Source: an uncultured Methanomassiliicoccales archaeon
GTDB lineage: Archaea > Thermoplasmatota > Thermoplasmata > Methanomassiliicoccales > UBA472
Direction of reading: 5' to 3'
Assembly (NCBI GenBank): GCA_963695345.1
Contig: OY968769.1
Location: 832,001 to 896,000, forward strand
DNA: 64,000 nucleotides
This document shows positions 7,397 through 40,506 of the stretch, in pieces (position 1 is the first letter of the stretch; each line of letters starts with the position of its first letter). Below the pieces are notes generated by a model. That model was given only the letters and a program-made list of their open reading frames with translations. It was not told where the DNA came from and did no database searches. A program made the translations under genes and the position numbers.

Positions 7397-9373
7397 ATGG
7401 CGACCAAGGGCAAAGGCAATCCGGAACGTACCTGCGACGCCGGGGCAAAGGACTGCATAGAGACAGCGGCCGCCAAGAAGATCGAGACCGCCTGGGACCG
7501 GTTCGAGCTGATGCAGCCGCAATGCGGCTTCGGAGAGCTCGGGGTGTGCTGCAACATTTGCCTTCAGGGCCCCTGCCGGATCAATCCATACGGGGGAAAG
7601 CCGGAGAAGGGCATCTGCGGCGCCCGGGACTATACGATCGTGGCCAGGAACCTCATCCGCCATATCGCGGGCGGCACCGCCTCACATTCGGGCCATGGCC
7701 GCCACATCGCCGACACGCTGCGGAAGGTGGTGGACGGGAACGCGCCGGCATATTCCATCAAGGACGAGAAGAAACTGAGGCGGGTCTCGGAACGGCTGGG
7801 GATCGATTGCCAGGGAAGGTCCAAGGAGGAACTGGCGAGGGCCGTCCTGATCAAGGTCTTCGACGACTATGGACGGAGCGAGAGTCTGCCCCTGAATTTC
7901 ACCACGGCCACTATCACCAAGCACCGCGCCGATCTTCTGGAATCGCTCGGGGTCATGCCTGACTCGATCGACCGTTCCATCGCCGACGTCATGCACCGCA
8001 CCTCGCTGGGCTGCGATGCCGATCCATTGCCCTTGCTCTTTGGCGGCATCCGGTGCGCCATCGCCGATTACAACGGAATGCAGATATCCACCGACCTGTC
8101 GGACATACTGTTCGGCACGCCCAGACTGGTCCGTACCTATGCCAACCTGGGTGCCCTCAAGGAGGATGCGGTCAACATCGCCATCCATGGTCACAACCCG
8201 GTGCTCAGCGAGGTCATCGTGGACGTCGCCCGGAAGATGGACGAGGAGGCCCGGCAGGCGGGCGCTTCGGGCATCAACATCGTCGGCATCTGCTGCACCG
8301 GGACCGAGGCGCTGATGCGGAAGGGGGTCTCCCTGGCCTCGAACTTCGCATCCCAGGAACTGGCGCTCGCCACCGGGGCGGTCGACCTGCTGGTGGCGGA
8401 TTACCAGTGCATAATGCCTTCGCTCTCGGAGATCTGCTCCTGCATGCACACCGAGATGGTGACCACGATGAGCAATGTCCGGATCCCCTATGACACCCAC
8501 GTCCAGTTCCGGGAGGAGGACGCCGAGGAGTCAGCGCGGTCGATCATCCGGATGGCCATCAAGTCCTTCCAACGGCGGGAACCGGCCAAGGTCAAGATCC
8601 CGAACGTCAGCTACGACGTGGTGGCCGGGTTCAGCACCGAGCAGATCGAGGAGCTGTGCGCACCGTTCGTACCGGAGGACCCGCTGATCCACATCGTCGA
8701 GGCCATCAGGTCCGGGCAGATACGGGGGATCGCGCTGCTGGCAGGCTGCAACAACCAGAAGGCGGTGCAGGACAGGAACCATCTGACCATCGCCAAGGAA
8801 ATGATCAAGCATGACGTCCTGGTGCTGACCACCGGATGTTCCGCCGGGGCCTGCGCCAAGAACGACCTTCTTTCCGCCGAGGCCACGGAGAGGTTCGCCG
8901 GACCCGGACTGAAGACGTTCATCCGGTCCCTCGAAGAGCGGAACGGGGTCAAGCTCCCGCCGATATGGCACATGGGTTCCTGCGTCGACAACTCCCGGGC
9001 CGCGAACCTGGCCAAGGAGATCGCGGTCCGACTGGGAACGGACGTCTCGGAGATACCGTTCGTCGTCTCGGCGCCCGAGGCGAATCACGAGAAGGCCGTG
9101 TCCATCGGCACCTGGTGCGTCGCCCTGGGCATGCCGGTCCACGTGGGCACCATCAGCTATGTTCACGGTTCGTCACTGGTCACCGAGGTGCTGGAGCACT
9201 CCGCCAGGGATGTCTTCGGCGGACATTTCATATTCGAGGCGGACCCGCACAAGGCATCGCACCGGCTGCTCAACACCATCGAACGCCGGCGCTGGATGCT
9301 GTCGTTCGAGAACCATTACGTGGTCGAGGACTCGAAGAAGCTCTCCAATCCAGGCTGTTCCGCATGGCCATAG
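7397..9373 (+). CDS. cooS: Bacterial-type (CooS/AcsA) Ni-Fe carbon monoxide dehydrogenase; possibly fused to acsB
   Basis: QPQCGFG..GVCCNICLQGPC..CGA (D/B clusters); HGHNP, ICCTG, DYQC, GCNN, TGC and GSCVD (C-cluster ligands); EKA; RBS aaggag. Confidence 0.96.
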   Translation: MATKGKGNPERTCDAGAKDCIETAAAKKIETAWDRFELMQPQCGFGELGVCCNICLQGPCRINPYGGKPEKGICGARDYTIVARNLIRHIAGGTASHSGHGRHIADTLRKVVDGNAPAYSIKDEKKLRRVSERLGIDCQGRSKEELARAVLIKVFDDYGRSESLPLNFTTATITKHRADLLESLGVMPDSIDRSIADVMHRTSLGCDADPLPLLFGGIRCAIADYNGMQISTDLSDILFGTPRLVRTYANLGALKEDAVNIAIHGHNPVLSEVIVDVARKMDEEARQAGASGINIVGICCTGTEALMRKGVSLASNFASQELALATGAVDLLVADYQCIMPSLSEICSCMHTEMVTTMSNVRIPYDTHVQFREEDAEESARSIIRMAIKSFQRREPAKVKIPNVSYDVVAGFSTEQIEELCAPFVPEDPLIHIVEAIRSGQIRGIALLAGCNNQKAVQDRNHLTIAKEMIKHDVLVLTTGCSAGACAKNDLLSAEATERFAGPGLKTFIRSLEERNGVKLPPIWHMGSCVDNSRAANLAKEIAVRLGTDVSEIPFVVSAPEANHEKAVSIGTWCVALGMPVHVGTISYVHGSSLVTEVLEHSARDVFGGHFIFEADPHKASHRLLNTIERRRWMLSFENHYVVEDSKKLSNPGCSAWP

Positions 9374-11470
9374 ACGGCGCGCTCATCGCCACCGGCTTCG
9401 CCGACCAGCTGTTGGGGGTGGCGATCGAGAAGCATGGCTACGACAAGAAGATCGAGTACCCGGAGACCGCCTACGAACTGCCGTCCATATACGCCTGGGA
9501 CGGTTCCGAGGCGAAGAAACTGGGAGACCTGCCCGGCATCCTGGGCAAGGCGCGCGGCAAGATCCGGGAGACCTCGGACCTGGAGAGCGCCCTGGTCGCC
9601 GGCGAGGCCACCATGATCGCGGCCGAGATCATCGAGTCCCTGAAGTACCTGGACGATGCCAAGCCCTACGAGGGCACCATGTACACCGGTTTCGTCCCGG
9701 ACCGCATACTGCGGCAGCTGGGACTGGCCCTCGTCGACGACACCATCCCGGGAGCGGCGGTGCTGGTCGGCACGGCCAAGGACCCGAAGCAGCTGGTCAA
9801 GACCGTCAGGGCGTGCCAGAGCAAGGGCATGCTGATCTTCGCCTCCTATGATACCGTCAGACAGCTCAGGGACAACGGCATCCACATGGGATTGGACATG
9901 ATGCTCTACCCGGTCGGGGAGTTCACCCAGGTCATTCATGCCCTCAACTTCGCGATCCGCGCCGCCCTCTCCTTCGGCGGGGTGCAGAGAGGCGACCGGG
10001 AACGACTGGCCGGCTACATGAAGAAGCGGCCCAAGGTGTTCGTCCTGCAGTTCGGTCCGCTGGACGCGATCAAGGCCTCGGCCGAGTTCGCGGTGCTGCT
10101 GAACGGTTCCCCGGTGGTGGCCGACCAGATCCTGGAAGGCATACCGGACCGTTTCGTTACCCAAGCCCCGGAAAGCATGCTGCAGACGGCCATCGAACTG
10201 AGGGAAATCAAGGTGAAGGCGGCGGCCGGTGGACGTGCCGGTCGCCTACGGCGCGGCGTTCGAGGGCGAGACGGTCCGCCGACCGGACACCTACGTGGAG
10301 GCGGGCGGCGCCTCGAAGACACCCACCTTCGAGCTGCTCAGGATGAGGGAAGAAGCGGACGTCGAGGACGGCAAGATCACGGTCATCGGGAAGGACGTGG
10401 ACCAGATGGCCGACGGATCGTCGACCCCGCTGGCGATCGTCATCGACGTGTACGGCAAGAAGATGCAGGAGGACTTCGAATCGGTGATGGAACGGCGTAT
10501 CCACCTGTTCCTTAACTTCGCCGAGGGCGTCTGGCACACCGGGCAGAGGAATCTGAACTGGCTCCGCCTGAGCAAGAACGCCGTGGCCGCGGGCTTCCGC
10601 TTCAAGCATTTCGGCGACATACTCATCACCAAGATGAAGGAGGAGTTCGGCAACATCATCAGCCGGGTCCAGGTGACCATAATCACCGATGAGGAGGAGA
10701 TCAAGCGCCAGCTGCCGTCGGCCATGGAGGTGTACGCCAAGCGGGATGCCCGGATGGCCGGCCTGACCGATGAGGCGGTGGACACGTTCTATTCGTGCCT
10801 CATGTGCCAGTCGTTCGCCCCGGACCATATCTGCATCGTCACCCCGGAAAGACTGGGCCTGTGCGGGGCGATCAACTATCTGGACGCGAAGACGGGGAAG
10901 GAGATATCCCCCACCGGCCCGAACCAGCCGATATCCAAGGGCGAGACGGTGGACGCCGTCAAAGGCCAGTGGACGGGCGTCAACCAGGCGGTGTACGATC
11001 TCACGCACCATAAGCTGGAAAGGTTCAACGCCTACACCCTGATGGAGGACCCGATGACCTCGTGCGGCTGCTTCGAGTGCATCGTGGCCATGACGGCGGA
11101 CGTCCAAGCGGTCATCGTGGTCAACCGGGAGTTCCCGGGCATGACCCCGGTGGGGATGAAGTTCTCCACTCTGGCCGGTTCCATCGGCGGGGGCAAGCAG
11201 ACCCCGGGTTTCATCGGGGTGGGCAGGAAATACCTTATCAGCAAGAAATTCATCCCAGCGGACGGCGGTTTCCTCCGCATCGCGTGGATGCCCAAGGATC
11301 TGAAGGAGGCGATGCGCGGATCGCTGGAGAAGAGGGCGGCGGAACTGGGCGAACCGGGTTTCGTGGACAAGATCGCCGACGAGACGGTCACCACGGAAGC
11401 GGACGGACTGACGGAGTGGATGGCCAAGGTGGACCACCCGGCCCTGAGGATGCCGCCGCTGCTGCAATAA
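9352..11470 (+). CDS. acsB: Bacterial-type acetyl-CoA synthase with N-terminal domain; frameshift near 10225; first ATG at 9364 but homology begins earlier
   Basis: YPETAYELP and GEATMIAAEIIE (N-domain absent from archaeal CdhC); A-cluster CLMCQSFAPDHIC..PERLGLCG; PMTSCGCFE. Confidence 0.95.
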
Positions 11471-11490
11471 TGTTTCAGGAAGGTCATGAC

Positions 11491-12451
11491 ATGGTCGAGG
11501 TTCCAATCCCCAAGGAGAAGTGGACGGGCAAGATCGGCGTACTTGAGCTTGGCGCTTCGGCGGAGAAGGGCGGCTCCCGGGGGAAAAAGGTCCTGGTCGG
11601 GCGGCGAGCACCGGCATGCCCTTCCTTTCGTACGAAGGCACTTCGCCGAACCGGCAGATCATCGCCGGGGAGGTCATGGACACCACTCGACGAACTGCCC
11701 TCGGCGGTGGCGGAGTTCTTCGGGGACGCCGTCAAGGACCCGGCGCAGTGGGCGAAGGCCTGGGTGGAGAAGTACCACGCCGACGTCATCTGCCTGAAGC
11801 TGCTGTCGACCAACCCGGAAGAGGCGAACGTATCCCCCGAGGCGGCCGCCGAGACGGTGATGAAGGTACTGGCCGCGGTCGATGTCCCGCTGATCGTCTA
11901 TGGCTGCGGACAGGAAGAGAAGGACGCCAAGACCTTGGAAGCGGTCAGCAACATCGCGCCGAAGGAAAGGCTGCTGCTCGGCTACGCCGAGGAGGGGCAC
12001 TACAAGTCCATCTCCGCGGCGTCGATGGCCAACGACCACCCGCTCATCGCGTTCTCCAACCTGGACATCAACCTGGCAAAGCAGATCACCATCCTGCTCA
12101 CCGATTTCGGGGTGAAGAAGGACAACATCGCCATGGACCCGCTGATGGCCGGCCTGGGCATGGGGCTTGACTATTCCTATTCGGTCAACGAGCGCATCCG
12201 GCTGGCCGCCCTCATGGGAGACGGCATGCTGCAGCAGCCGATGCTGTGCGACTCCACCGCTTCGTGGAAGTCGGCCGAGGCGACCGACGAGATCGTAGGG
12301 TACGGCGACGCCGAAGGAGAGGGGTGTCTGGTGGGAGGCGACCACCGCCATAGCCGCCCTGGTCTCCGGAGCGGACATACTGGTCATGCGGCATCCAGGA
12401 GCGGCCGAGCTCGTGCGGGAAGCGCTGGACGATCTCAGGGGAGGGAACTGA
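11491..12451 (+). CDS. acsD: Corrinoid iron-sulfur protein small subunit; several frameshifts
   Basis: MVEVPIPKEKWTGKI, MPFLSYEG, DPAQWAK, DINLAKQ, GMGLDYSYSVNERIRLAAL. Confidence 0.92.
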
Positions 12452-13786
12452 ATGCCGACCGCCATCGAGATCTTCAAGCATCTGCCGAAGAAGAACTGCG
12501 GGGAGTGCAAGCACCCCACCTGCCTGGCGTTCGCCATGCAGCTCGCCAACCAGAAGGCCAAGCTGGAGGATTGCCCCTATGTCTCGGACGCCGGCAAGCA
12601 GTCGCTGGCGGCCTCCTCGGCCCCGCCGATCAGGTTGGTCAAGGTCGGGCACCGGCAAGGCCGACCCTGGAGATGGGCGACGAGACCGAGCTGTACCGCC
12701 ATGACAAGAAGTTCTTCCATCCGGTGCGCTACGCGATGACGGTCTCGGACACACTGACCGAGGCCGAGGCGATATCCAAGGTCCAGAAGGCCAATGCCAT
12801 GCGGTTCGAGCGGGTCGGACAGATCATGGCCCTGGACATGGTATGCGTCAGGAACGATTCCAAGGACGCGGGCAAGTTCGTGGCGATGGTCGACAAGGTG
12901 ATGTCGTCCACGGAACTGCCCACTGATCCTCTCCAGCGATGATCCGGTGGCGATCAGGGCGGCGGCTGCTGAGGATCTCGGCCAAGGTCCCGCTGCTCTC
13001 CGCGGCGACCACGGACGAACTTCGCCGAGATGGCCGCACTGGCCAAGGAGTTCAAGTGCCCTCTGGTGGTCAGGGAATCGAACCTCAACGACCTGGCCGA
13101 CCTGGTGGCAAAGGTCAAGCTGGCAGGCGTCGAGGACATCGTTCTGGACTTCGCTGCCGGGCAACCTCAAGGACCTGATCGAGAAGAGCACCATCATCCG
13201 CAAGCTCTCGGTCAAGAAGACGTTCCGCGGGCTCGGATATCCCTATGCTGGTGAACGCCCCGGACGGCAACCGCGGCATCACCATGGGACTGGTCTCCAC
13301 CATGAAGTACGGGTCGATCGTGGTGTTCGAGGACCTGCCGCCAGCAGATGGCCATACCTCTGTTCGTGCTCCGGCAGAACATCTATACCGACCCGCAGGT
13401 GCCGATCCAGGTCAAGCCCGGATCTGTACCCGATCGGCAATCCGACGGAGAACTCGCCGATCCTGTTCACGACCAACTTCTCGCTCACCTACTTCACCGT
13501 GCTGGGAGACATCGACAAGAGCAAGGTCCCGGTGTGGCTGCAGGTCGTCGACTGCGAGGGGCTCAGCGTGCTCACCGCGTTCGCCGCCGGGAAGCTGACC
13601 TCTGAAGGAGTCGTCCATGATCTGGACAAGTCCGGGGCTAGGACCAAGTCGAAGAAGAACGTCCTGATCATACCGGGCATGGTGGCTCGGATGGCGCCGA
13701 AGCTCGCCGAGCTCACCGGCATGAAGATCGTGGTCGGACCGAAGGAATCGTCCGGCCTGCCGAAGATGCTCAAGTCGCTCGAGTGA
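12452..13786 (+). CDS. acsC: Corrinoid iron-sulfur protein large subunit; several frameshifts
   Basis: LPKKNCGECKHPTCLAFA..CPYVS [4Fe-4S] motif; RQNIYTDPQVP; TTNFSLTYF; GLSVLTAFAAGK. Confidence 0.94.
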
Positions 13787-13938
13787 CACTCCAACCATCT
13801 ATCGATGCCTATGCATTATTGGCGGCGGTCCAACCTAGGTGATGCTTACACTAGCTGTGCCGATCAAGAAACGGTGAGTTGGCCCAACATATTAGCATAT
13901 CGATAGCGCCTTCTGCTCCAGGCCTGCGTTGACGGCCA

Positions 13939-14265: not shown

Positions 14266-14319
14266 CTCCGGCGAACACCTTACCACATCAGTTCATTTCA
14301 GGCTGATAATACCGTCGTT

Positions 14320-14809: not shown

Positions 14810-15562
14810 TCATTTCAACGTACCCGCCAGCCCGACGACCGCCCGATAGAATTGACTGAGCGGGTCAAGCTGGACCAGTGGAGAGCCGGACACGGCCAAT
14901 TCCTCCACCTTCCGGTCGTAGGGCAGGTATGACACCGAACCGAAACCGGCCCCGTCTATCTCCCTCTGTACGACCTCTCCCACCGTTCCCTGGACCCGGT
15001 TGACCACCAGGACGCTCCGGCCCACCTCGATCTCCATCCCCCTTGCCAGTGCCAGCAGCCGCTTTCCCGTTTCTACCCCGAGCACCGTGGCGTCGGAAAC
15101 GACCAGCAGCACGTCCATCCTCTTCGTGGTACGTCTGGAAAGATGTTCCATGCCGGCCTCGTTATCTATGACGACATAGTCATAGGAGTCCATCGCCTCA
15201 TCGATGAACGTCCTCAGGATGTTATTGATGTAGCAGTAGCAGCCCCGACCCTCTGGCCGCCCCATGGTGAGCAGGTCGAAACCGCTTCCCTCCACCTTGG
15301 CCATTTCCATCTGGTAACGGACCAACTCGTGCTTGCTCAAGCCCGCTCCGAGCTCGTCCGCCCTCCTCAGCAGGTCCTCCCTCAGCTCACCGATGGTGTG
15401 CTCCACCTTCATGCCCAGCTTGTCGCCCAGATTGGAGTTGGGATCGGCATCGACGGCCATGACCACCGATCGCGTGCGTTCCGCGATGGCCTTGATAAGC
15501 AACGCTGACAGGGTGGACTTGCCCACCCCTCCCTTGCCCGCCACGGCCACTATGAAGGTCAA
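14810..15562 (-). CDS. cooC: CooC/AcsF nickel-insertion ATPase for CODH/ACS
   Basis: GKGGVGKS Walker A, DADPNSN, GRPEGRGCYC, DNEAGMEHLSR. Confidence 0.93.
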   Translation of the reverse strand: MTFIVAVAGKGGVGKSTLSALLIKAIAERTRSVVMAVDADPNSNLGDKLGMKVEHTIGELREDLLRRADELGAGLSKHELVRYQMEMAKVEGSGFDLLTMGRPEGRGCYCYINNILRTFIDEAMDSYDYVVIDNEAGMEHLSRRTTKRMDVLLVVSDATVLGVETGKRLLALARGMEIEVGRSVLVVNRVQGTVGEVVQREIDGAGFGSVSYLPYDRKVEELAVSGSPLVQLDPLSQFYRAVVGLAGTLK

Positions 15563-15565: not shown

Positions 15566-16615
15566 TCAATCCTCCAAGCCGTACTTCGACCGTATCGCCT
15601 CGGATACCTCGACCAGAAGGTCCAGAACATGCAGGCACTCCGACTCGCTGAGCCCTCCGAGCCCGCATTCCGGGGTTATCATGGACTGCTCGAGCAGCAC
15701 GTCCCGGTTCAGACCCTTGGAGACCAGCTCCCCGACCGCGGAATCGAATCTGGCCAGTAGCGTGTCCGCTGTCTGGTCCTCAAACCGGTGGCTCATGTTC
15801 GGGATCAATCCCCAGGAAAGTATGCCGCCCCGGGCCAAGAATGCCTTCAGCTGTTCCGGGTAAAGGGAGACCGAGAACGCGTAGTTGTAAGCGTCGAAGG
15901 ACAGCAGGTCTATGCTGGTGGACAGCACCATCGGCCAATCGGTGTTACCGCAGCAATGGACCCCGCGGATGGCCTTGACCCCTTCGAAAACCTCATCGAT
16001 CCAGGAGATCACGTTGTCGCCTGAGACGGAGGCGAACGGAGTTCCGACGAGGGACAACGAAGGCTCATCCAGGAAGATGATGACCTTGTCGGACAGTTTG
16101 GAAAGCTGACGCTCCTGCCACCGGACGCACATGTTGAGATTCCGGCGGATGATCTCACCGTAGGCCTCATCGTATATCGCCGGGCGCCCGTTCTGGTCCA
16201 CGATCTGCAGGCCGGCGCTCACTGGCCCGATCACCTGCCCCTTCACCGCCACGGCCCTTTTCGGCAATTTCCGCCGCATCAGCTCATAGAACCCGGAGAA
16301 GCTGTCCTCGGGATAGGCAAAGCTGTCCACATCGTCATTGATGATCCGGTTGTAGAACTCCTCCGGATCGTAGTTGGTCAGGTCAACGGTCACCCGCTTG
16401 TTCTCCCGGTCTATGACCACTCCCGGAAGGTTCGTGGCGTACTGCGCGTACATGTTCTCCTGGAATCCACGGGCGGGCAGCTGGGGCCAGTAGGGGATCT
16501 CGTGAAGACGGTGCTCTATCTCGTCAAGTGCCTTGATAGGGTCTTTGAAGGGCATTGATCCGATGCAGGTCGGTGCGCAGTTCCAGGCCATGGCCCACTC
16601 TATTTTATCGGCCAT
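15566..16615 (-). CDS. Core (single-barrel, folate-independent) methionine synthase, MesB-like
   Basis: PTCIGSMP, WPQLP..ENMY, KGQVIGP, FLDEP, zinc ligands HCC and TPECG; about 350 aa with no N-terminal folate barrel. Confidence 0.8.
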   Translation of the reverse strand: MADKIEWAMAWNCAPTCIGSMPFKDPIKALDEIEHRLHEIPYWPQLPARGFQENMYAQYATNLPGVVIDRENKRVTVDLTNYDPEEFYNRIINDDVDSFAYPEDSFSGFYELMRRKLPKRAVAVKGQVIGPVSAGLQIVDQNGRPAIYDEAYGEIIRRNLNMCVRWQERQLSKLSDKVIIFLDEPSLSLVGTPFASVSGDNVISWIDEVFEGVKAIRGVHCCGNTDWPMVLSTSIDLLSFDAYNYAFSVSLYPEQLKAFLARGGILSWGLIPNMSHRFEDQTADTLLARFDSAVGELVSKGLNRDVLLEQSMITPECGLGGLSESECLHVLDLLVEVSEAIRSKYGLED

Positions 16616-28926: not shown

Positions 28927-29048
28927 GCACTGTTTCAATTACATCCGGGAGGGCATAATCCTTCGCCTTGGATCTTGAGATTGTCAACGTTCCATGGAAC
29001 AAGAAGGCGACCCGTCGGCAGGGCATTGTGCACGGTTCTGTTCGGCGG

Positions 29049-31231: not shown

Positions 31232-32173
31232 CTAGGAGGGATCCTGCTCCGTCCCGACCGTCACCGGACGGGGATATAGGCCGGCCTCGCGCACTATCTC
31301 CGGAACCTTCTCCTCCCAGGCCACCGCCATGATGTGAATGCCATGGACGCCCTTCATCTGTTTCAGGTGCTCGATGGTCTCGATACAGAGCTTGATGCCT
31401 TCCGCCTTCGGATCGGCCGCGGTCTTCATGCGGTCGATGATAGCGTCCGGGACGCTCATGCCGGAGACCTTGTTCTTCATGTAGAGAGCGACCTTTGCCG
31501 ATTTCAGCGGCAGCACCCCGGCCAGAATGTGGACCTTTCGGTCGAGGCCCCGGTCCCGAACCCCATCCATGAACGTTTCGAACCTGTCCATATCATAGAT
31601 GGACTGGGTCTGTATGAAGTCAGCCCCGGCGGCCACTTTCTTGGCCAAACGGGCGACCCGGAACTCGAACGGGTCCCCGAACGGGTTCTCCACCGCTCCC
31701 AGGTACAGCTGGGGGGCGGCCTCGAGGAGGTCCCCTCCCCAGGCCTTTCCCTCGTCGCGCATGGAGCGCAGGACCATGAGCTCCTGGATGGAGTCCAGGT
31801 CGTATACGTTCTTGGCCTCCTTCTGGTTGCCGAATATCTGATGGTCCCCGGTCAGGCACAGGACGTTCCGTACCCCGAGCGCGCTGGCTCCCAGGACGTC
31901 GGATTGGATGGCGATGCGGTTCCGGTCCCGGCAGGCCATCTGCATGACCGGCTCGACGCCTTCCTGTATGCACACCAGCGAAGCGGCCCAACTGGACAAC
32001 CTAACCATTGCCGTCTGGTTATCGGTCAGATTGAAGGCGTCGGCATACCCTCTCATGTTCCCGACGTGTTTCCTCAGCACATCGGGGTTGGCCCCCTTCG
32101 GAGGCCCTATCTCGGCGGTGACCGCGAACTGCCCGGAATCCAGCACTCTCTGCAGGTTGCTTGAGGCCTTCAT
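31232..32173 (-). CDS. metF: Methylene-THF reductase, flavin subunit
   Basis: TAEIGPPKG, NLTDNQ, CRDRNRIAIQSD, CLTGDH, KVAAGADFIQTQ, GIHIM. Confidence 0.93.
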   Translation of the reverse strand: MKASSNLQRVLDSGQFAVTAEIGPPKGANPDVLRKHVGNMRGYADAFNLTDNQTAMVRLSSWAASLVCIQEGVEPVMQMACRDRNRIAIQSDVLGASALGVRNVLCLTGDHQIFGNQKEAKNVYDLDSIQELMVLRSMRDEGKAWGGDLLEAAPQLYLGAVENPFGDPFEFRVARLAKKVAAGADFIQTQSIYDMDRFETFMDGVRDRGLDRKVHILAGVLPLKSAKVALYMKNKVSGMSVPDAIIDRMKTAADPKAEGIKLCIETIEHLKQMKGVHGIHIMAVAWEEKVPEIVREAGLYPRPVTVGTEQDPS

Positions 32174-32873
32174 TGCGAGACCCCCCGGATCCTCTTTTCC
32201 TCGTCGGTCTGGACCGCTTCCTTCCTGACGGTCTTCCGCGGCCCTCCGGAGCGGCTCGGCCTCCAGTTCTTGGGGGGATCACGGCCTCCATGAGGTCCAG
32301 GCGGCCCAGCTCCTTTAATGAGCGGTAAATCAGGTCCCAGCCGCAGGGGGTGTCCGGGTCGATCTCGCACTTGCCGTTCTGGGAGCCGCCGCAGGGGCCG
32401 TTCATCAGGCTCTTGGAGCACCTCGCCACGGGACACACCCCTCCAGTAAGGTGCAGCACGCAGTCTCCGCAGCCACCACACCTCTCCAGGTAGATCCCCT
32501 GCTCTTCCGGCGCGCCCATGGAAACGGTGTTGACGCCGGGAACGACGAAAACCGAGGGATACATATCGTGGATGACCTGAGCGCCGACCCCGCACGCCAA
32601 AGAGATGACCGCGTCCTTGCCCTCGATGGCCGCCTTCATGCCCGCGGCCCATTCCTTCTCGCACGCCCGCTCGAGGGTGACCACATCTACGTTCCACCCC
32701 TTGTGTTCGAGGTCGGAATGCAGCCGGAGCGATTCCGCCAGAATGTTCGCCTCCTTTTCCCCTCCGGCCAGGCAGATCGCCACGCAGGAACGGCATCCTA
32801 CGACGAGCACTTCCCTGTGCCCCTCGAGCATCTTGATGACATCAATCAATGGTTTCTGTTCCGCGATGATCAT
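32170..32873 (-). CDS. metV: Methylene-THF reductase Fe-S/Zn subunit; frameshift near 32270
   Basis: MIIAEQKP, GCRSCVAIC, ACGVG, CGGCGDC, CPVARCSKSLMNGPCGG..C..C. Confidence 0.9.
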
Positions 32874-33274
32874 TTCCTCACCTTTCCGATGGGGTTCGGG
32901 CCGAGCCTATCCACCCTCGAGACCATCTCCTCGACGATCTCCACGAACCTCCAATCCTGATTGGAGGACAGGTTGAACATCTCCAGCCGCTCCGGTTCCA
33001 GACCGGCGGACTGGATCAGCGATTTCGCCAATGTGACGCGTTTCCGCGCCTCGATGTTGCCATACTGGTATTTGCAGTTGCCTTCGAGGCATCCAGCTAC
33101 AAATACGGCATCCGCGCCCTCCCGGAGCGCCCTCAGGAGATGCACCACATCTACCCTTCCGGTGCATGGCAGCTCCACCAGCGTCACCGAGGATGGATGG
33201 ACCGACCCTTTCGATGATGCCCGCTCGGCCGCCTCCAGCGCGCCGTCCCGGCAAACGAACCCGATGATCTTCAT
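32870..33274 (-). CDS. mvhD: MvhD/FlpD [2Fe-2S] electron-transfer subunit
   Basis: FVC, PCTGRV, GADAVFVAGC..GNC.Y..GN, GLEPERL, LGPNP. Confidence 0.92.
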   Translation of the reverse strand: MKIIGFVCRDGALEAAERASSKGSVHPSSVTLVELPCTGRVDVVHLLRALREGADAVFVAGCLEGNCKYQYGNIEARKRVTLAKSLIQSAGLEPERLEMFNLSSNQDWRFVEIVEEMVSRVDRLGPNPIGKVRK

Positions 33275-34911
33275 TCCATCTCCTCCAGTGCGGATGCCAA
33301 CTCTGACATTATCTGGTCATCCCGGTAGGAGTATACCTGGATGGCCTTGCTGGGGCAGGCCGCCGCGCAAATCCCGCAGCCCTGGCATATGCCGATGTCG
33401 ACCTCGGCCTTCCTCTCCGTACCAATGCGGGGAGCGTGGAAGGGGCAGGTCCTGACGCAGGTAAGGCATGCGGAGCAACGTTCCTGATCGACCTCGGCGA
33501 CGTTCCCTCCGATTACCAGGCGCGAACGGAGCAGCGAGGCCATCCTGGAGGCCGCGGCCTTTGCGCTCATGGTCGGACCCGCCCCCAGGTTCATTTCCGA
33601 GGCCGAACCGCAAAGGAGAATACCGGGAATATGAGCGGAGACCGGACGGCATTTGGGATTGGACCGGGCCATGCCGCCGTCGGAAGCGAGCGGTAGCTGG
33701 AAAGCCCTGGCCACGACCTCCGTCCCGACGCTCTCGGAACGGTTGTCCACCACCACCAGGTCAGCCGGTATCCTAAGGACCAGGCCGGAATGCATGTCCT
33801 TGACGACCAGACCTCCATCGTCCATGGTCGGCACGGTCTCCGAACGGATGAAACGGACCCCCATCTCCTGGGCCTTGCGGTATCCCACCTCGCACTGGCC
33901 GAAGGCATAGACCTCACGGAGGATCACGGTGACATTGGATTTGGGCGATAGGCCTTTGGCGTGCATCGAATGATGCACGGCGTCATGCGTGGACATGGGC
34001 GAACGTTCCGACGTCCCATCCTGGTCCATGGCAACCATGACGATGTTCCGCGGGACCCTCCCCAACGCCCGGAGCTGCGCCTCGAACCCTTCCTGGGTTA
34101 TGGCGCCAGGGAATCGTGAGAGCAGGGGATTGAAGGAATCGACCTTGTCCAGGGCGACGATCGCGCCTCCTACCGTTTCCTTCCATGTCTCTCCGCCCTT
34201 GGACATCGTCACCGTAAAATCGCCTGGATGTCCGTCAATGGACCGGACCTCGGTGGAATCGTGCACCCGGAACCGGTCCCCGACCGAATCGGCCATCTGG
34301 TCCAGTGCCCCGCCCTCCAGCGGGATAACGCTCTGATGGTCGCTCTCCTCGATCTGGGAGGTCGGATTCGCCACGATCACATCCAGACCTTCATCCAATA
34401 ACGCCATGGAAGCGGTTATGGCGGATGGCCCGTTGCCGATGACCAGCACCTTTCTCGACCTCCCCACTTCCATGCGGGGAGTGGTCTGGAGCATCGCGAT
34501 CCTCCTCAGCGAGGTGCGCATCGCGCGTTCCGCCCTGCCCTGCGCCTCTGACCTGGATAGGGGGCCGCACAGGCCGATGATATCGACGAAGGTGACCAGT
34601 TCGGGACAGATGCCGGCCGATTCCGCCAGTTGCGCGAATCGTTCCGATGCGCTACGGGCGCTGCAGCCGACCACCATGAACCTGTCGATGTCCCCGGCCA
34701 TCAGGGAGAGCTTGACCTCTCCCAAGGCTGGCCCGTCGCACCCGCGGTCGAAGCAGAGAACGTCCCTGACATTGGCGTCGGCGTTGGCAATAACCTTGAT
34801 CCGGTCCAGGTCGACCTTTCTGGATATTACCCCGCCGCAGGAGCATATGAAGACCCCGATGCCCTTGGGCGTTCCGATGGGGCCGTGAGAGGGCGGCACC
34901 GGCTCGGTCAT
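33271..34911 (-). CDS. HdrA/QmoB-like subunit with degenerate FAD and cluster motifs and C-terminal 2x[4Fe-4S]
   Basis: GVFICSCG N-domain; VIGNGPSA in place of GGGxAG; QCVGSR/CSxxCC replaced; CSACLTCVRTCP and CQGCGICAAACP. Confidence 0.85.
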   Translation of the reverse strand: MTEPVPPSHGPIGTPKGIGVFICSCGGVISRKVDLDRIKVIANADANVRDVLCFDRGCDGPALGEVKLSLMAGDIDRFMVVGCSARSASERFAQLAESAGICPELVTFVDIIGLCGPLSRSEAQGRAERAMRTSLRRIAMLQTTPRMEVGRSRKVLVIGNGPSAITASMALLDEGLDVIVANPTSQIEESDHQSVIPLEGGALDQMADSVGDRFRVHDSTEVRSIDGHPGDFTVTMSKGGETWKETVGGAIVALDKVDSFNPLLSRFPGAITQEGFEAQLRALGRVPRNIVMVAMDQDGTSERSPMSTHDAVHHSMHAKGLSPKSNVTVILREVYAFGQCEVGYRKAQEMGVRFIRSETVPTMDDGGLVVKDMHSGLVLRIPADLVVVDNRSESVGTEVVARAFQLPLASDGGMARSNPKCRPVSAHIPGILLCGSASEMNLGAGPTMSAKAAASRMASLLRSRLVIGGNVAEVDQERCSACLTCVRTCPFHAPRIGTERKAEVDIGICQGCGICAAACPSKAIQVYSYRDDQIMSELASALEEME

Positions 34912-36128
34912 TTCAACCTCTCCAGATAGATGCTGGCCTTGCCCGCCGCGATGTTTCCGTCCATAACGCACTCCTCGATGTCCTTGGGGCCGGAGCATGA
35001 TCCGCAGAAGAACAGCCCTTTGGCATCAGTCACCCGCCCGGGGTTCCCTTCGGACACGAAGAATCCTTGCGGGGAAAGGCGTACTCCGAGCGAGCTCGCG
35101 ATATCCGCCCCGGAGTCTGGAGGCATGAGACCGATCGATAGAATGACCAGATCGAACTCCGTCTCCTTGACGCCGTCGTCGGTGGCCATCGCATACCGGA
35201 CGAGCGGTCTCCCGCCCTCGCCTTCGACCACTTCGGCGGGCCGGCTCCGCAGCACCGTCAGTTTCGGGTCGGAACGGGCCAGGTCCGTGATCGAGTCCTC
35301 GTCCGCGTACCTCCTCCAGTCCATCATGAAGAAGGATATGTCGAGATTAGCGTCCGCTGCCCTCAATGATTGGGCCAGTTTCATCGCGTATTTGCAGCAC
35401 ACCTTGGAGCATTGCTCGGACCCGGTTCGGCCCCTTGAGCCTACGCATTGGATGAAGGCGACGCTGCGCGGCGGCTTCCCTTCGCAGAAACGATTCAATG
35501 AGCCGCACCGATTCAGCTCCGCCTCCGCGTCAAGACCGGTGATGACCCCGTTGACCGAGCCATAACCCAATCTCGGGTCTGCCCCGGCGTCGAACGGATC
35601 GTTACCTACCGCCACAATGATGGCGTCCGCCAGGACCTCGCAGCCTACCGGACCGGTCCGGACCGCGTCCCTGGAACAGACATCGACACACCTGCTGCAT
35701 TCCTCCACCGGGAACGGGCAGGACGGCGTCACTACCTTTCTCTGACCCTTGCTGCCAGTAACCGCCACTATGGCCCCGGACGGACAGGCATCGGCACAGT
35801 CACCGCAACCATCGCAGCTCATCGGGTCGATGGAACGGCCCGGCGCAACGGTGACCCGGTACATTCCCATGTCCCTCTCGATCGTGGCCACCTCCGAGGA
35901 GGTGATGATCCTCACCAGGCCTGAACGGAACAGTCTCGGGACCAGCTCCGTCGACATGCACACATCGCATTTCACGCATTGCACCCGCCCCTTGCAGGCT
36001 AGCTCTGAGGCCAGTCCGCCCAATCTAGGGGAGCGCTCCACGATGGTGCATGGTATTCCCCTCTGGGCCAGTGAAAGGGCCGCAGAAATGCCCGCGGTAC
36101 CTCCGCCGATGATGACCACACCTCTCAA
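34908..36128 (-). CDS. HdrA/QmoA-like flavoprotein with inserted ferredoxin
   Basis: IIGGGTAG, CDGCGDCADACP, FIQCVGSR, CSKVCC, DLVILSIG, GPKDI; TTG start with gaggtg RBS. Confidence 0.9.
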   Translation of the reverse strand: MRGVVIIGGGTAGISAALSLAQRGIPCTIVERSPRLGGLASELACKGRVQCVKCDVCMSTELVPRLFRSGLVRIITSSEVATIERDMGMYRVTVAPGRSIDPMSCDGCGDCADACPSGAIVAVTGSKGQRKVVTPSCPFPVEECSRCVDVCSRDAVRTGPVGCEVLADAIIVAVGNDPFDAGADPRLGYGSVNGVITGLDAEAELNRCGSLNRFCEGKPPRSVAFIQCVGSRGRTGSEQCSKVCCKYAMKLAQSLRAADANLDISFFMMDWRRYADEDSITDLARSDPKLTVLRSRPAEVVEGEGGRPLVRYAMATDDGVKETEFDLVILSIGLMPPDSGADIASSLGVRLSPQGFFVSEGNPGRVTDAKGLFFCGSCSGPKDIEECVMDGNIAAGKASIYLERLK

Positions 36129-36335
36129 GGAAACCGCACCTCGGGTGAACGAAGTATGGTGGACGACATCTCAGGTTGGAGTGCCGGGAATGATTCGAAA
36201 TGATACTGGACGGTCAAATGGTATCGGACTTTCTGACCTGATGGGTGATATAAAAAGCTTATGAACATGCTATTGCGCCGGACGGGGATTGTGGTTCGGC
36301 AACGGTTATCTAGGGCGCTGACCTTCTGTTTCCCC

Positions 36336-37175
36336 ATGCGCAGGGCGGCCATCACCGTCGATGTGGACAGGGATGTCAATCAGGCCTGTAAGGGACGAAC
36401 GGCGGCCATCTCCAGTCCTGTCAATGGTTCGGACCAGCCCAGGTTCTCCTCGTCCAGGAAAGGCTTGGAGCTCATCGTGGCCGCCATGAACGACCTGGAG
36501 GTCCGCGGGACGTTCTTCTTTGAGGCGACGACGGCGCTGGAGATCAGCAAGTCGGCGGATATCGCTGAACTGATGCAGGGACATGAGATCGCCTGCCATG
36601 CCTATGACCATGAGGATCTGACCGGGCTCGACACCGGGATAAGGATCGACCGGGAGGAGGTCGACGATATCCTGGAAAGGTCCATCGGGGTGCTGGATTC
36701 CCTGTTCGGCGAAGGAAGGCGCGGTTTCCGTGCCCCCTACCTGCACTCGAACGATGAGCTGATGGAATCGCTGAAGGAACACCGCTTCCTCTATGATTCC
36801 AGTGTGGTGGAGGAGATGCGCGACGGCCAGATCCGGCCCTATCTCACCAAGGGCGGATTGCCGGAGGTGCCCATCGCATCATCGCGGGACGGCCGGGGGA
36901 AGAAGATAGTGGGATATCTCTGGCCCCTGCATGAAGGAAAGAGGCCCATAGGCGACTACCTCCAAATGGTGGACGGTTTCCGAGACGGGCTGCTGGTCCT
37001 CTCCACCCATTCCTGGCATCCGGTGGAGAACTTCTGCGATGGCCAGCAATGCGAGCTCGATGTGCAGAAGGGCATGGACGACCTGAGGACGCTCATCAAT
37101 CATTCGATCGACACAGGGGTGGAGTTCGTCACCGTGGCGGAATATGTCGGCCGGGACATGGGAGGGAGCTGCTGA
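36336..37175 (+). CDS. Polysaccharide deacetylase (CE4/NodB-like) family protein
   Basis: TVDVD, GTFFF, HEIACHAYDH, GFRAPY, YDSS, HSW. Confidence 0.85.
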   Translation: MRRAAITVDVDRDVNQACKGRTAAISSPVNGSDQPRFSSSRKGLELIVAAMNDLEVRGTFFFEATTALEISKSADIAELMQGHEIACHAYDHEDLTGLDTGIRIDREEVDDILERSIGVLDSLFGEGRRGFRAPYLHSNDELMESLKEHRFLYDSSVVEEMRDGQIRPYLTKGGLPEVPIASSRDGRGKKIVGYLWPLHEGKRPIGDYLQMVDGFRDGLLVLSTHSWHPVENFCDGQQCELDVQKGMDDLRTLINHSIDTGVEFVTVAEYVGRDMGGSC

Positions 37176-37819
37176 TGCCTGCCATCTTCGAAAAACTGAG
37201 GAACACTGCCAGCTATTCCGCCGCCCAGGAGAAGGCCTGGGAAGACCTGGTCCATCTGGATTCGAAGAGCATCGCGAAGAACTCGATGGCCGATTTCGAT
37301 GGCCGGACGTTCACCCTCAATGTGCTCGACGAGACCGTCAAGGTCGATAAATGGGAGGGCCGGGTGACCACTTCAAGTCCGCATGACCGGGCCTTCGAGA
37401 TCCTGGTGATGCATTATCTGATCGGCTGCCAATCGGGAGGGCCGTGCGGCGAGCTTGTCCTTTTCCGCCAGCTCAAGGGAGGGGAGGCGTACAACGATAC
37501 CTTCCACAAACGCGTGAACGACCGGTTGGCCAAGGCGTTCGGCGACGATCCCGGGTCGCTGGTAACGACGGGCGAACGGTTGAAGGGAACCAGGAGGTCT
37601 AAGGGCAACGCTTCGATCGAACTGCCCCTGTTCCCCAAGGTCCCCATCACCGTTATCGTCTGGCGGGGGGATGATGAGATCCCAGCTTCTTCCACAGTTC
37701 TGTTCGACCGCAGCATAGGCGACATCTTCCCCACCGAGGACGTTGCAGTGGCCGGCTCCCTGATCGTGGAGAAGCTGGTCGGGGCGAAGGGAGAATGGCC
37801 GGTCAGTACAGACCGGTGA
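37175..37819 (+). CDS. DUF3786 family protein
   Basis: ILVMHYL, FRQLKGG, LFPKVPI..WRGDDE.PAS..LFD, EDV pattern; TGATG coupling to the upstream gene. Confidence 0.75.
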   Translation: MPAIFEKLRNTASYSAAQEKAWEDLVHLDSKSIAKNSMADFDGRTFTLNVLDETVKVDKWEGRVTTSSPHDRAFEILVMHYLIGCQSGGPCGELVLFRQLKGGEAYNDTFHKRVNDRLAKAFGDDPGSLVTTGERLKGTRRSKGNASIELPLFPKVPITVIVWRGDDEIPASSTVLFDRSIGDIFPTEDVAVAGSLIVEKLVGAKGEWPVSTDR

Positions 37820-39476
37820 TGTAACCGTCATCGCTGATGTCGATCCCCAGCGCCGCCGGGTCGGAGGACAGGCCGGGCATGAGCATTATCGGACCGCAGA
37901 CCACCACGATGAACCCTGCCCCGGCGGAAACGAACACTTCCCTGACGTTCAGTTCCCATCCGGTGGGGGCTCCCTTCAGTTTAGGATCGTCGGATAGGGA
38001 AAGCTGGGTCTTGGCCATGCAGACGGGGAGGTGATTGGTCCAGGAGCTCTCGATGAGCTTGATGGACTTCTCTGCCCCGCTCTCGTACTGAACGTCCATG
38101 GCACCGTACATCTCGGTGGCGACCACCCGGATCTTCTCCTTCAGCGGCAGGTTCGTGTCATAGAGGAAGCGGAAATTGGGCTTCTCGTTGGCCAAGACCT
38201 CAAGCACCTGCGAAGCCAGCTCCGCGCCTCCCTCCCCACCTTTAGCGAACACGTCGGAGAGCGCGCACCGCACGCCTTTCTCCTTGCAGTGATCGATGAC
38301 GATCCTGATCTCCTCCTCGGTATCGGTGGCGAAATGGTTCAGAGCCACGACCATCGGCACACCGAACTTCCTGATGTTCTCGATATGCTTGTCCAGATTC
38401 GAGAATCCGCGCCTCAGGCCGTCGCAGTCCTGAACGCATACCTTGTCGATGGGGACGTTCCCGTGCATCTTCAGCGCCCGGATCGAGCACACGACGACCG
38501 CGCAGTCGGCGTGGATACCTTCATTGCGACAGACTATGTCGAAGAACTTCTCTGCGCCCAGATCGGCCGCAAAGCCCGCCTCGGTGACGACGATGTCGGC
38601 CATCTTCAGGGCATATTTGGTGGCGGTTAGGGATGAATTGCCGTGGGCGATGTTCGCGAAGGGGAAGCCATGGATGAAGAACGGTTCGCCCTCCAAGGTC
38701 TGGACCAGATTAGGGAATATGGCATCCTTGAGGAGCAATGCCAGCGCTCCCACGCATCCGAGCTGGGTGACGGTGACCGGCTCTCCGTCGAAGGTGTAGG
38801 CCACGATCATCCTTCCCAATCGCTCCTTGAGGTCGGCCATGGAGGTGGCCAGGGCGAGGATGGCGCTGATCTCCGTCGCCACGGTGATGATGAAACCGCC
38901 CTCGTGCGGGGTCCCGCCTTCGGTCCTGCCGCCAAGTCCGACCACGATGTGCCGCAGCTCACGGCAGTTCATGTCCATCGCCTTGCGCAGTACTATCCGG
39001 GTAGGATCGATATTGAGCGGGTTCTTCTTGGAAATGCTGTTCTCCAGCAGGGCCGAGAGCAGGTTGTTCGCGGCTCCGACCGCATGGATGTCCCCGGTGA
39101 AATGCAGGTCGATGTCCCACATCGGGTATACCTGGGAGTATCCGCCGCCGGTGGCGCCCCCCTTGAGGCCGAAAGTGGGCCCTAGGGACGGTTCACGGAT
39201 CGCCCCCATCACCTTCTTGTTCAGCCTTCCCAATGCCTGCACCAGGCCGATGGTGGTGACCGTCTTGCCTTCCCCAGCCGGCGTGGCGGTGATGGCGGTC
39301 ATGAGCACGAGCTTGCCAGTCGGATGGCCGTCGAACTTCTTGAGAGAGCTCAGCGGCACTTTCGCGATGTACTTGCCATAGAGGACGATGTCATCCTTGT
39401 CCAGACCGACGGACCTCGCGATATCCTCGATGGGTCTGGCCTTGACTTCCTGAGCGATCTCGATGTTGGTCTTCAT
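37803..39476 (-). CDS. fhs: Formate-tetrahydrofolate ligase
   Basis: TPAGEGKT, REPSLGP..KGGATGGGYSQV, LHFTGD, PFANIAHG, TEAGF, CMAKTQ, MPGL. Confidence 0.97.
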   Translation of the reverse strand: MKTNIEIAQEVKARPIEDIARSVGLDKDDIVLYGKYIAKVPLSSLKKFDGHPTGKLVLMTAITATPAGEGKTVTTIGLVQALGRLNKKVMGAIREPSLGPTFGLKGGATGGGYSQVYPMWDIDLHFTGDIHAVGAANNLLSALLENSISKKNPLNIDPTRIVLRKAMDMNCRELRHIVVGLGGRTEGGTPHEGGFIITVATEISAILALATSMADLKERLGRMIVAYTFDGEPVTVTQLGCVGALALLLKDAIFPNLVQTLEGEPFFIHGFPFANIAHGNSSLTATKYALKMADIVVTEAGFAADLGAEKFFDIVCRNEGIHADCAVVVCSIRALKMHGNVPIDKVCVQDCDGLRRGFSNLDKHIENIRKFGVPMVVALNHFATDTEEEIRIVIDHCKEKGVRCALSDVFAKGGEGGAELASQVLEVLANEKPNFRFLYDTNLPLKEKIRVVATEMYGAMDVQYESGAEKSIKLIESSWTNHLPVCMAKTQLSLSDDPKLKGAPTGWELNVREVFVSAGAGFIVVVCGPIMLMPGLSSDPAALGIDISDDGYITGLY

Positions 39477-39618
39477 TAGCTCCACCCTGGGAAGGACAGG
39501 TATGTTGGAAGTATGTCTTAAACGTTAGGACATTGTCCTTCCTGAACCTGACCAGTGGTCCCGGTAGGGCATCGAACATTTATTATTTAGCGGATAGATA
39601 GGGTGACACTGAGACCTC

Positions 39619-40506
39619 ATGACCGCCATCTTGATCGAGGGAAAGCCCATCGCCGAGGAAATCAGGAAGGAACTAAGGGAAAGGATATCCTTGTTGAAGG
39701 ATAAGGGGGTCGTCCCAGGCCTGGCCGTCATCTTGGTCGGGGATGACGCGGCCTCACAGACCTATGTCCGCATGAAGGGGAAGGCGAGCGAAGAACTGGG
39801 CATGTTCTCGCAGACCATCCTCAAGCCCAATGACTTCACCGAAGCGGCGTTGCTCCAGCTCATCGACGAGCTCAATGCGGACCCCCGGGTCCATGGCATC
39901 CTGGTGCAACTGCCCCTGCCTCCGCATATCGATGAGCGGAATGTCCTGGTCCGCATCGACGAGCGCAAGGATGTGGACGCTTTCCATCCGGTGAACGTGG
40001 GCAAGATCTTGATCGGAGACCATACCGGTTTCATGCCGGCCACACCTTACGGCATACAGGAACTTCTTATTCGCAGCGGGAATGCGCCATCGGGTAAGCA
40101 CGTGGTCATACTGGGAAGAAGCAATATCGTAGGCAAGCCCCTGGCGGCCATGCTGATGCAGAAGGATGAGCGCGCCAATGCCACGGTCACCGTCTGCCAC
40201 TCAAGGACCAAGAACCTGGCGGAGATAACCCGCACCGCCGACATCCTGATCTCGGCGATGGGGGCGGAGGCGGCGTTCGTCAAGGCGGATATGGTCAAAC
40301 CGGGAGCGGTGGTCATCGATGTCGGTTCGAACCGTGTGCCGGACAAGAGCCTGCCAAGGGGTTACCGGTTAGTGGGGGACGTAGACTTCGATTCCGTGAG
40401 GTTGAAGGCGGCGGCGATCACCCCCGTGCCTGGCGGAGTGGGTCCGATGACCATCGTCATGCTCATGCGCAACACCATCAAGGCGGCGGAGTCGACGCTG
40501 GAATGA
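39619..40506 (+). CDS. folD: Bifunctional methylene-THF dehydrogenase / cyclohydrolase
   Basis: YVRMK, GILVQLPLP, KDVD..HP.N, GRSNIVGKP, ITPVPGGVGPMT. Confidence 0.97.
   Translation: MTAILIEGKPIAEEIRKELRERISLLKDKGVVPGLAVILVGDDAASQTYVRMKGKASEELGMFSQTILKPNDFTEAALLQLIDELNADPRVHGILVQLPLPPHIDERNVLVRIDERKDVDAFHPVNVGKILIGDHTGFMPATPYGIQELLIRSGNAPSGKHVVILGRSNIVGKPLAAMLMQKDERANATVTVCHSRTKNLAEITRTADILISAMGAEAAFVKADMVKPGAVVIDVGSNRVPDKSLPRGYRLVGDVDFDSVRLKAAAITPVPGGVGPMTIVMLMRNTIKAAESTLE

Follow-up and report, generated by a model that had tools for sequence, protein, structure and literature searches.

The window analysed here is the whole stretch of 64,000 nucleotides (nt) that covers bases 832,001-896,000 of the one-contig, 2,561,992-bp genome (56.0% GC, no N) of an uncultured Methanomassiliicoccales archaeon. 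Between 7.4 and 40.5 kb it carries genes of a tetrahydrofolate (H4F)-based Wood-Ljungdahl pathway, from cooS, for carbon monoxide dehydrogenase (CODH), and acsB, for acetyl-CoA synthase (ACS), to the folate genes fhs and folD. Genes were called by Pfam scans of the long open reading frames (ORFs) of the window and with NCBIfam models, whose curated cut-offs were scored on the intact orthologs of G007, another genome of this genus that is also in one contig. Both searches confirmed the gene list of the initial annotation, which had placed cooS to folD within about 33 kb. The pathway genes are the following (aa, amino acids; CFeSP, corrinoid/Fe-S protein).

7397..9373, + strand: cooS, CooS-type Ni-CODH (Pfam Prismane PF03063, 538 bits)
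9376..10216, + strand, frame 1, within ORF 8836-10515: acsB N-terminal (A1) domain (CODH_A_N PF18537, 93.7 bits, at 9412-9651)
10229..11470, + strand, frame 2: acsB A2-A3 core with the A-cluster motifs (Pfam CdhC and ACS_CODH_B_C)
~11470..12450, + strand, several frames: acsD, CFeSP small subunit (Pfam CdhD; G007 ortholog NF003376, 342 bits, cut-off 280)
~12451..13786, + strand, several frames: acsC, CFeSP large subunit (Pfam CdhD, C-terminal part; G007 ortholog NF003195, 539 bits, cut-off 306)
14810..15562, - strand: CooC/AcsF-like P-loop ATPase, candidate Ni-insertion factor (Pfam AAA_31/CbiA/ParA-type matches)
18086..~20040, - strand: acsV/RACo, reductive activator of corrinoid protein (RACo-domain ORF 18086-19885; RACo_C_ter, Raco_middle, RACo_linker)
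24641..25417, + strand: acsE, methyl-H4F:corrinoid/Fe-S protein methyltransferase (Pterin_bind; G007 ortholog NF005719, 295 bits, cut-off 259)
31232..32173, - strand: metF, methylene-H4F reductase (MTHFR, 148 bits; only an in-frame 3-nt difference from G007)
32170..32873, - strand: metV (PF12225, 119 bits; last ~35 codons shifted)
32870..33274, - strand: mvhD-like [2Fe-2S] protein (FlpD, 127 bits)
33271..36128, - strand: two hdrA-like flavo-iron-sulfur proteins of 575 and 406 aa (Fer4 and Pyr_redox families)
37803..39485, - strand: fhs, formate-H4F ligase (FTHFS, 813 bits, full length)
39619..40506, + strand: folD, methylene-H4F dehydrogenase/cyclohydrolase (THF_DHG_CYH and THF_DHG_CYH_C)

Residues 12-634 of CooS align to CODH-II of C. 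hydrogenoformans (E 2e-204), and in this alignment the motifs HGHNP, GICCTG, DYQCI, AGCNN, TGC and GSCVDN are kept. The G007 CooS ortholog scored 673 bits with TIGR01702 (cut-off 478), and the CODH part is not of the CdhA type, as TIGR00314 gave 46 bits against a cut-off of 781. Regarding AcsB, the A1 part aligns to residues 28-313 of Moorella ACS (E 4.6e-67) and the core to residues 318-729 (E 5e-166). The A-cluster motifs (Cys-x2-Cys...Cys...Cys and Cys-Gly-Cys), read here as SCLMCQSFAPDHICIVTPERLGLCG and SCGCFE, match the Moorella chain. We take the conserved Cys and His motifs to be the ligands of the A-, B-, C- and D-clusters. The intact catalytic motifs put forward in the initial annotation were thus found again for the clusters of CooS and AcsB when compared with solved CODH-II and Moorella ACS. 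The window copy of acsB is split and was not scored whole with the three-domain AcsB model NF040764, on which the same-genus ortholog P0001 reached 955.5 bits (cut-off 800); the ACS core also exceeded the cut-off of the cdhC model TIGR00316 (439 bits against 356).

The two genes cooS and acsB, first described as separate, form one fused ORF in relatives. A single stop-to-stop frame of 1,368 aa in G007 spans CooS (aa 12-662) and, of AcsB, both the A1 domain and the core. P0001, the corresponding 1,357-aa translation, exceeds the cut-off of TIGR01702 (aa 13-636) as well as that of NF040764 (aa 661-1355). In the window, the cooS/acsB junction has a net 1-nt deficit relative to G007 (+1 at 9349, -2 at 9353), and the cooS stop codon TAG (9371-9373) and the acsB ATG (9364) arise because of this deficit. 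The junction frame is open at 12 of 13 loci of relatives, taken from genomes within the genus and from three outside it; the exception, L013, has a separate AcsB frame of 733 aa. More widely, 16 of the 36 relatives with an AcsB match, out of 40 searched, have a stop-to-stop frame of 1,328-1,390 aa. In relatives, CooS and AcsB are thus encoded as one protein of ~1,360 aa, with CooS as its N-terminal ~650 aa.

This arrangement is frequent in databases. A protein search limited to lengths of 746-2,375 aa returned 907 proteins at E <= 1e-10, and 119 of the 120 listed carried all four Pfam domains; the named proteins among the matches listed belong to Methanomassiliicoccales, Thermoplasmata, Methanobacteriota, Bathyarchaeia and Halobacteriota records. 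In a set of 107 AcsB rows, the fusion was present in 28 of 59 archaeal rows and in none of the 48 bacterial-labelled ones. Apparent bacterial fusions in G140, G180 and G185 (loci L142-L144) were not counted: their open frames had been reported as 1,216-1,386 aa and the fetched DNA gave only 724-748 aa. A phrase search of the literature returned no description of a CODH-ACS fusion, although other wordings may exist and supplements of papers could list it. With such a covalent CODH-ACS, nature would provide a simple enzyme in a single chain on which CO channelling could be studied by structure and biochemistry.

Two variants were seen beside the common form. Fused CooS-AcsB proteins of ~1,895 aa with intein and LAGLIDADG homing-endonuclease domains (PF14890, PF14528) inside the ACS core occur in G012 (C53:19223-22072) and as P0019, P0026 and P0167. 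AcsB forms of ~1,000 aa with an N-terminal extension of ~290 aa occur as P0203 and at loci L034, L041, L064-L067, L070, L080 and L092. The last ~100 residues of this extension align weakly to the CooS C-terminus, including the IERRRW motif, and from this alignment the extension looks like the decayed CODH half of a fusion.

The junction is not the only place where frames are broken. In comparison with G007, acsB has one 1-nt insertion at ~10224 that parts the A1 domain from the core, acsD has four frame-breaking 1-nt insertions (11598, 11605, 11687 and 12310), acsC has nine 1-nt insertions, acsV has one shift near 19909 and metV has one 1-nt deletion at 32275, where the G007 ORF is intact. The acsV shift leaves the N-terminal [2Fe-2S] domain out of frame at ~19909, and the G007 ortholog has the added Fer2 domain. 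Nearly all indels in the acs genes are single inserted bases in non-homopolymer context. Across the whole window, 99 well-flanked indels not divisible by three were counted (64 insertions and 35 deletions), and they are patchy: 14 frame-breaking indels fall at 10-14 kb and 48 at 50-60 kb. The latter patch, the densest in the window, corresponds to the Fpo-like complex (operon ~50000-61300), in which the antiporter-like, NADHdh and 49-kDa subunits are affected, as judged by orthology to G007. Likewise, a pyruvate carboxylase subunit B-like gene (HMGL-like and PYC_OADA; 0.25-1.8 kb) and a biotin carrier protein, together at 250-2330, are broken up by five frame switches when compared with G007.

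The same sites were compared with Logan contigs assembled from short reads of a sediment metagenome run (X1), which are ~96-99% identical to the window over the pieces compared; X1 could stem from the source sample itself or from a sister population, and the evidence from it is not fully independent. Single-base differences between X1 and the window mark the inferred break points at 9350, 11597, 11607, 11685, 12313, 12646, 12664, 13239, 13422, 19909 and 20421. In X1 contigs, an extra A stands behind 9350 and an extra C behind 19909, and the contig that spans 9816-10660 shows a single gap, in keeping with the 10224 insertion. All four acsD insertion sites lack a base in the X1 contigs, and the acsC insertions at 12646, 12664, 13239 and 13422 were confirmed as absent from X1. 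Two differences at the gene borders (11473 and 12451) are absent from X1 and leave the frames unbroken. Three further runs (X2-X4) cover little of the stretch, with short contigs that were uninformative on frameshifts.

Projected onto the G007 frame, acsD and acsC have 93.1% and 92.2% aa identity, respectively, and no internal stops. When nonsynonymous codon differences are divided by synonymous ones, acsD gives 0.29 and acsC 0.39, compared with 0.33 and 0.32 for the intact genes purH and fhs, which indicates that the acs genes are under purifying and not relaxed selection. Because the Fpo genes are also affected, the spectrum is error-like, the X1 contigs lack the breaks at the sites compared and the corrected frames are healthy, we consider the frameshifts in acsB, acsD, acsC, acsV and metV to be assembly (consensus) errors and not biology. 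The initial annotation had named genuine inactivating frameshifts in acsB, acsC or acsD as what would speak against it; on the comparisons with X1, with G007 and with the Fpo genes, the breaks are judged to be artefacts. More generally, where long-read assemblies have patches of erroneous 1-nt insertions, intact genes can pass for pseudogenes.

The host of these genes is well placed. An archaeal 16S rRNA gene and an intact mcrA (555-aa frame) lie on the same contig as the folate and acs genes, so that the statement that archaeal-type genes share the contig holds for the entire 2,561,992 bp. Family searches of the contig also detected two mtaB genes and matches to the NiFe-hydrogenase large subunit, the Fpo-like operon lies inside the window itself, and Mch, a marker of the tetrahydromethanopterin (H4MPT) branch, had no match in the one-contig genome. 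In agreement with this gene content, the host is an mcrA-bearing member of the Methanomassiliicoccales of the methyl-reducing methanogen type; AcsB of the same genus is 98% identical to that of a record from an uncultured Methanomassiliicoccales archaeon. Cultured Methanomassiliicoccales are textbook H2-dependent methyl reducers and are said to lack the Wood-Ljungdahl pathway.

The window is collinear with G007 at 74-86% nucleotide identity. With one contig holding 16S and mcrA and with this collinearity, bin contamination is therefore not an issue, and contamination or mis-binning was ruled out on the single contig and on the synteny with closed G007. An origin of the acs/met region from a bacterium, which had also been raised as a possible objection, is likewise not borne out by this synteny. 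The GC content of the genes, described at first as similar to that of the archaeal genes, needs qualification: the acs operon, at 63.2% GC, lies well above the genome mean of 56.0% and at the 99.8th percentile when the genome is cut into 6-kb windows, while its tetranucleotide profile is ordinary. Similarly, of the TATA-like boxes proposed upstream of acsE and folD, the candidate for folD is an AT-rich TTTATTATTTA ~40 nt upstream, and the region upstream of acsE is only weakly TATA-like.

Among 40 relatives of the order, 36 gave an AcsB match (23/24 in family f1 and 13/16 in families f2-f7), which in one case covers just 25 residues; all seven other genomes of the genus have AcsB (93-96% identity). 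A match to mcrA was obtained in 39 of these 40 relatives. Close AcsB sequences belong to Methanomassiliicoccus sp. UBA386, UBA345, UBA6, isolate MXMAG1, a UBA10834 Thermoplasmata metagenome-assembled genome (MAG), Methanomethylophilaceae MAGs and Ca. Methanarcanum hacksteinii, and a 2026 preprint (10.64898/2026.07.07.736967) lists AcsB in Methanomassiliicoccales and other archaea. AcsB trees were built by quick maximum likelihood (LG+G4) with Shimodaira-Hasegawa-like approximate likelihood ratio (SH-aLRT) support and left unrooted; the bacterial rows comprise 30 sequences from 301 genomes of one phylum and 15 MAGs, with Moorella-type sequences absent from the tree. In these trees, 38 Methanomassiliicoccales-type rows form one group on a branch marked as supported, and a single branch of length 0.40 (SH-aLRT 100) parts 45 bacterial from 62 archaeal-type rows, a split that counts three bacterial-labelled 'cleanbin' records as archaeal. 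A recent bacterial import of AcsB is not indicated by these trees, narrow in their bacterial sampling and unrooted. The label 'bacterial-type' in the initial annotation consequently stands for the architecture (three-domain AcsB and CooS-type CODH) and not for the ancestry, AcsB falling in an archaeal clade against the 45 bacterial sequences.

The three 'cleanbin' records (L083, L086 and L087, labelled Anaerovoracaceae, Bacteroides salyersiae and Eggerthellaceae) carry AcsB sequences almost identical to those of Methanomethylophilaceae and Ca. Methanarcanum. From this near-identity they are probably mis-binned archaeal contigs.

Regarding the methyl branch, genes for Fhs, FolD, MetF(V) and AcsE are all present, and the hdrA-like genes were read in three frames as two intact ORFs. 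Two PF00809 genes were found in the genome: acsE and another that scores 284 bits and is presumably folP. AcsE is accordingly the only candidate for a methyl-H4F:corrinoid methyltransferase in the genome. A search of the rest of the genome, which the initial annotation had advised, yielded the mcrA and NiFe-hydrogenase matches given above and no match for formate dehydrogenase (Fdh), MtrA or MtrH. More precisely, TIGR01591 (Fdh-alpha) and PF00384 had no match in the one-contig genome, with controls matched in 11 of 14 genomes, and PF02007 (MtrA) and PF04208 (MtrH) had none either, with matches in the control genomes. The pathway described as near-complete thus has its H4F enzymes in place and lacks a matched formate dehydrogenase. 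These absences are strong for a one-contig genome. In the relatives, where the search was for MtrH and not for MtrA, just one of the seven other members of the genus had a match, whereas all 17 genomes from the remaining genera of the family have MtrH, in many cases no more than ~10 kb away from mcrA. AcsB without MtrH was found in 11 of the 40 relatives.

The published schemes of acetate splitting and of methanol disproportionation lack a link in this genus because both run through MtrAH. Methyl oxidation, named as a possible use in the initial annotation, and the cleavage of acetate need the link from methyl-H4F to coenzyme M (CoM) and lose ground with MtrA and MtrH unmatched. As far as gene content can tell, the absent Fdh and Mtr links favour acetyl-CoA synthesis from formate or methyl-H4F and CO2 over methyl oxidation or acetate splitting.

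Taken together, these results lead us to propose a functional, vertically inherited archaeal H4F Wood-Ljungdahl pathway in an H2-dependent methyl-reducing methanogen, the main job of which would most likely be anabolic acetyl-CoA synthesis; we put the probability of this reading at about one half. The order of steps follows the known enzymology of the families, and we infer which way the flux runs, what donates the electrons and that formate supplies the C1 unit. Formate would be activated by Fhs, and FolD and the MetF-MetV module, with MvhD and HdrA-like partners, would carry the reduction to methyl-H4F. AcsE would transfer the methyl group to AcsCD, the corrinoid Fe-S protein, whose activity AcsV would maintain. 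The fused CooS-AcsB would reduce CO2 to CO with reduced ferredoxin and then condense CO, the methyl group and CoA. The anabolic route is favoured because MtrH, MtrA, FdhA and PF00384 are unmatched, because AcsB persists without MtrH in more than a quarter of the relatives and because AcsE is the only methyltransferase candidate; it is the reading that needs nothing unseen. The formate-to-acetyl-CoA H4F branch that Xie et al. 2024 (PMC10804542) describe across 243 genomes of the order also counts in its favour.

Several points weigh against this proposal. The pathway is reversible in principle and its direction is not fixed by gene content alone, and a cell that lacks Fdh depends on formate from outside or on some other entry of C1 units. 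Genome completeness was scored at 85% and error-ridden genes could escape a family search, so the absences are weakened. The cooC-like gene has no specific NCBIfam model above cut-off and was assigned by position and family. For the acsC sites 12919, 12967, 13016, 13150 and 13343, the reading as errors comes from the comparison with G007 and not from X1, and position 32275, where metV is shifted, is beyond the part compared with X1 contigs.

Among the alternatives to anabolic synthesis, the pathway might run in reverse, taking part of the methyl groups of methanol through methyl-H4F to formate and providing electrons for methyl-CoM reduction with no need for H2. All H4F steps are present and their enzymes are reversible, metF and metV lie beside mvhD and the hdrA-like genes, an absent Fdh fits formate as end product, and a methanol disproportionation scheme has been published for a related MAG (Speth & Orphan 2018, PMC6147122). 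However, this route needs MtrAH as the CH3-H4F:CoM methyltransferase, and neither subunit is matched here, nor MtrH in six of the seven other genomes of the genus; AcsE is the sole methyl-H4F:corrinoid methyltransferase candidate, and CODH/ACS, which the route does not need, is conserved. We therefore hold it to be unlikely. Cleavage of acetyl-CoA from acetate to methyl-H4F and reducing power, for C1 biosynthesis or for an aceticlastic-like methanogenesis, would agree with the reversibility of CODH/ACS, and an aceticlastic scheme has been drawn for the same MAG, named MALP. It is doubtful to a greater degree, as no route from methyl-H4F to CoM was found and the original authors themselves questioned the scheme and its energy balance (PMC6147122).

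A role of the CooS part mainly in oxidation or detoxification of environmental CO, or in carboxydotrophic energy gain, could be drawn from its closeness to the monofunctional CODH-II of C. hydrogenoformans, but the covalent fusion to ACS in relatives points to CO channelling within the complex and cooS is co-located with acsD and acsC, which makes such a role a little less probable again. Finally, the acs genes might be decaying pseudogenes, or foreign bacterial DNA mis-assembled into the contig. The 15 frame-breaking indels counted in acsB, acsD and acsC, the net 1-nt deficit at the junction and the extreme GC of the operon would suit this explanation. We regard it as very improbable: the indels are nearly all non-homopolymer 1-nt insertions and are denser still in the essential Fpo-like genes, those compared are absent from near-identical short-read contigs, the corrected acsC and acsD frames have no stops and normal substitution ratios, and the region is syntenic with closed G007, has ordinary tetranucleotides and encodes an AcsB that groups with archaeal sequences.

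The fusion and the missing links can be joined in a broader picture, which we advance with less confidence than the anabolic reading. Methanomassiliicoccales and other archaea (Thermoplasmata, Bathyarchaeia and Halobacteriota records) might share a natural CooS-AcsB protein of ~1,360 aa, common in databases and seemingly undiscussed in print, of which some lineages would retain a ~290-aa CooS remnant. In this genus the protein would work without MtrAH or Fdh, in a folate pathway decoupled from methanogenesis, and would turn formate and CO2 into acetyl-CoA for 'acetate-dependent' methyl-reducers. The persistence of the pathway in a genus without the proposed MtrAH link narrows its likely role to carbon assimilation, which bears on how sediment and wetland methanogens of this order obtain cell carbon. 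The closed genome moreover offers a clean chromosomal example of the folate pathway in environmental Methanomassiliicoccales.

Two further genes that stand among those of the pathway are the following.

15566..16615, - strand: conserved 349-aa protein adjoining the cooC-like gene (82% aa identity to its G007 ortholog, no indels)
37049..37819, + strand: DUF3786 protein adjoining fhs (DUF3786, 161 bits)

The 349-aa protein had no Pfam or NCBIfam match. Directly upstream of cooS, at 3815-7118, lie genes for two large Kelch-repeat proteins (506 and 593 aa); the G007 ORFs at this position gave no match above a 55% identity filter, and the spot seems variable. A gene for an S-adenosylmethionine (SAM)-dependent methyltransferase (25402-26191) overlaps the end of acsE and has a frame shift near 25634; its product resembles trans-aconitate/BioC-type enzymes and weakly matches the corrinoid-protein-associated CpaM. 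At 27901-28938 (- strand), a sulfite-oxidase-like Oxidored_molyb domain is fused to a DUF4079 membrane domain, in a genome that has no PF00384 molybdoenzyme match.

The folate gene set in Methanomassiliicoccales has been reported since 2018, and its novelty is low, as the caution in the initial annotation had foreseen. MALP, a MAG of the 'Lake Pavin clade', was described with a complete C1-tetrahydrofolate pathway and ACS/CODH and with the same possible uses (Speth & Orphan 2018, PeerJ, PMC6147122), a description cited by Zinke et al. (bioRxiv 10.1101/2020.03.09.984617). Two things may be new, namely that CooS and AcsB are covalently fused and that this genus has kept the pathway while losing MtrAH, details that supplements of earlier papers might list. 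MALP carries mtrAH as the proposed methyl-H4F:CoM methyltransferase, whereas MtrA and MtrH are unmatched here, and it consists of 1.55 Mb on 58 contigs compared with 2.56 Mb on one contig. The passage of the paper on MALP makes no mention of a CooS-AcsB fusion, which is seen in this lineage.

Methanosarcina ACDS (acetyl-CoA decarbonylase/synthase, CdhABCDE) performs the same chemistry, and the ACS core described here passes the cdhC cut-off. By contrast with ACDS, the CODH part is not CdhA-type, AcsB has the A1 domain that CdhC lacks, and Mch is unmatched. Moorella-type acetogens use a MetFV-HdrCBA-MvhD methylene-H4F reductase. Here too, metF, metV, mvhD and hdrA-like genes stand side by side on one strand, but their cluster contains hdrA-like genes in two copies and neither hdrB nor hdrC. 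In architecture the enzyme described here resembles the CODH/ACS of Moorella thermoacetica and C. hydrogenoformans (solved structures include 1OAO, 1MJG, 1RU3 and 7ZKJ), with which it shares the three-domain AcsB (aligned residues 28-729), a CooS-type CODH, the partners AcsCD, AcsE and RACo, and H4F as C1 carrier. It differs from them in that the bacterial CODH and ACS are separate chains, whereas this lineage has one polypeptide of ~1,360 aa, in which AcsB lacks the first ~27 residues and belongs to an archaeal clade that excludes the sampled bacteria.

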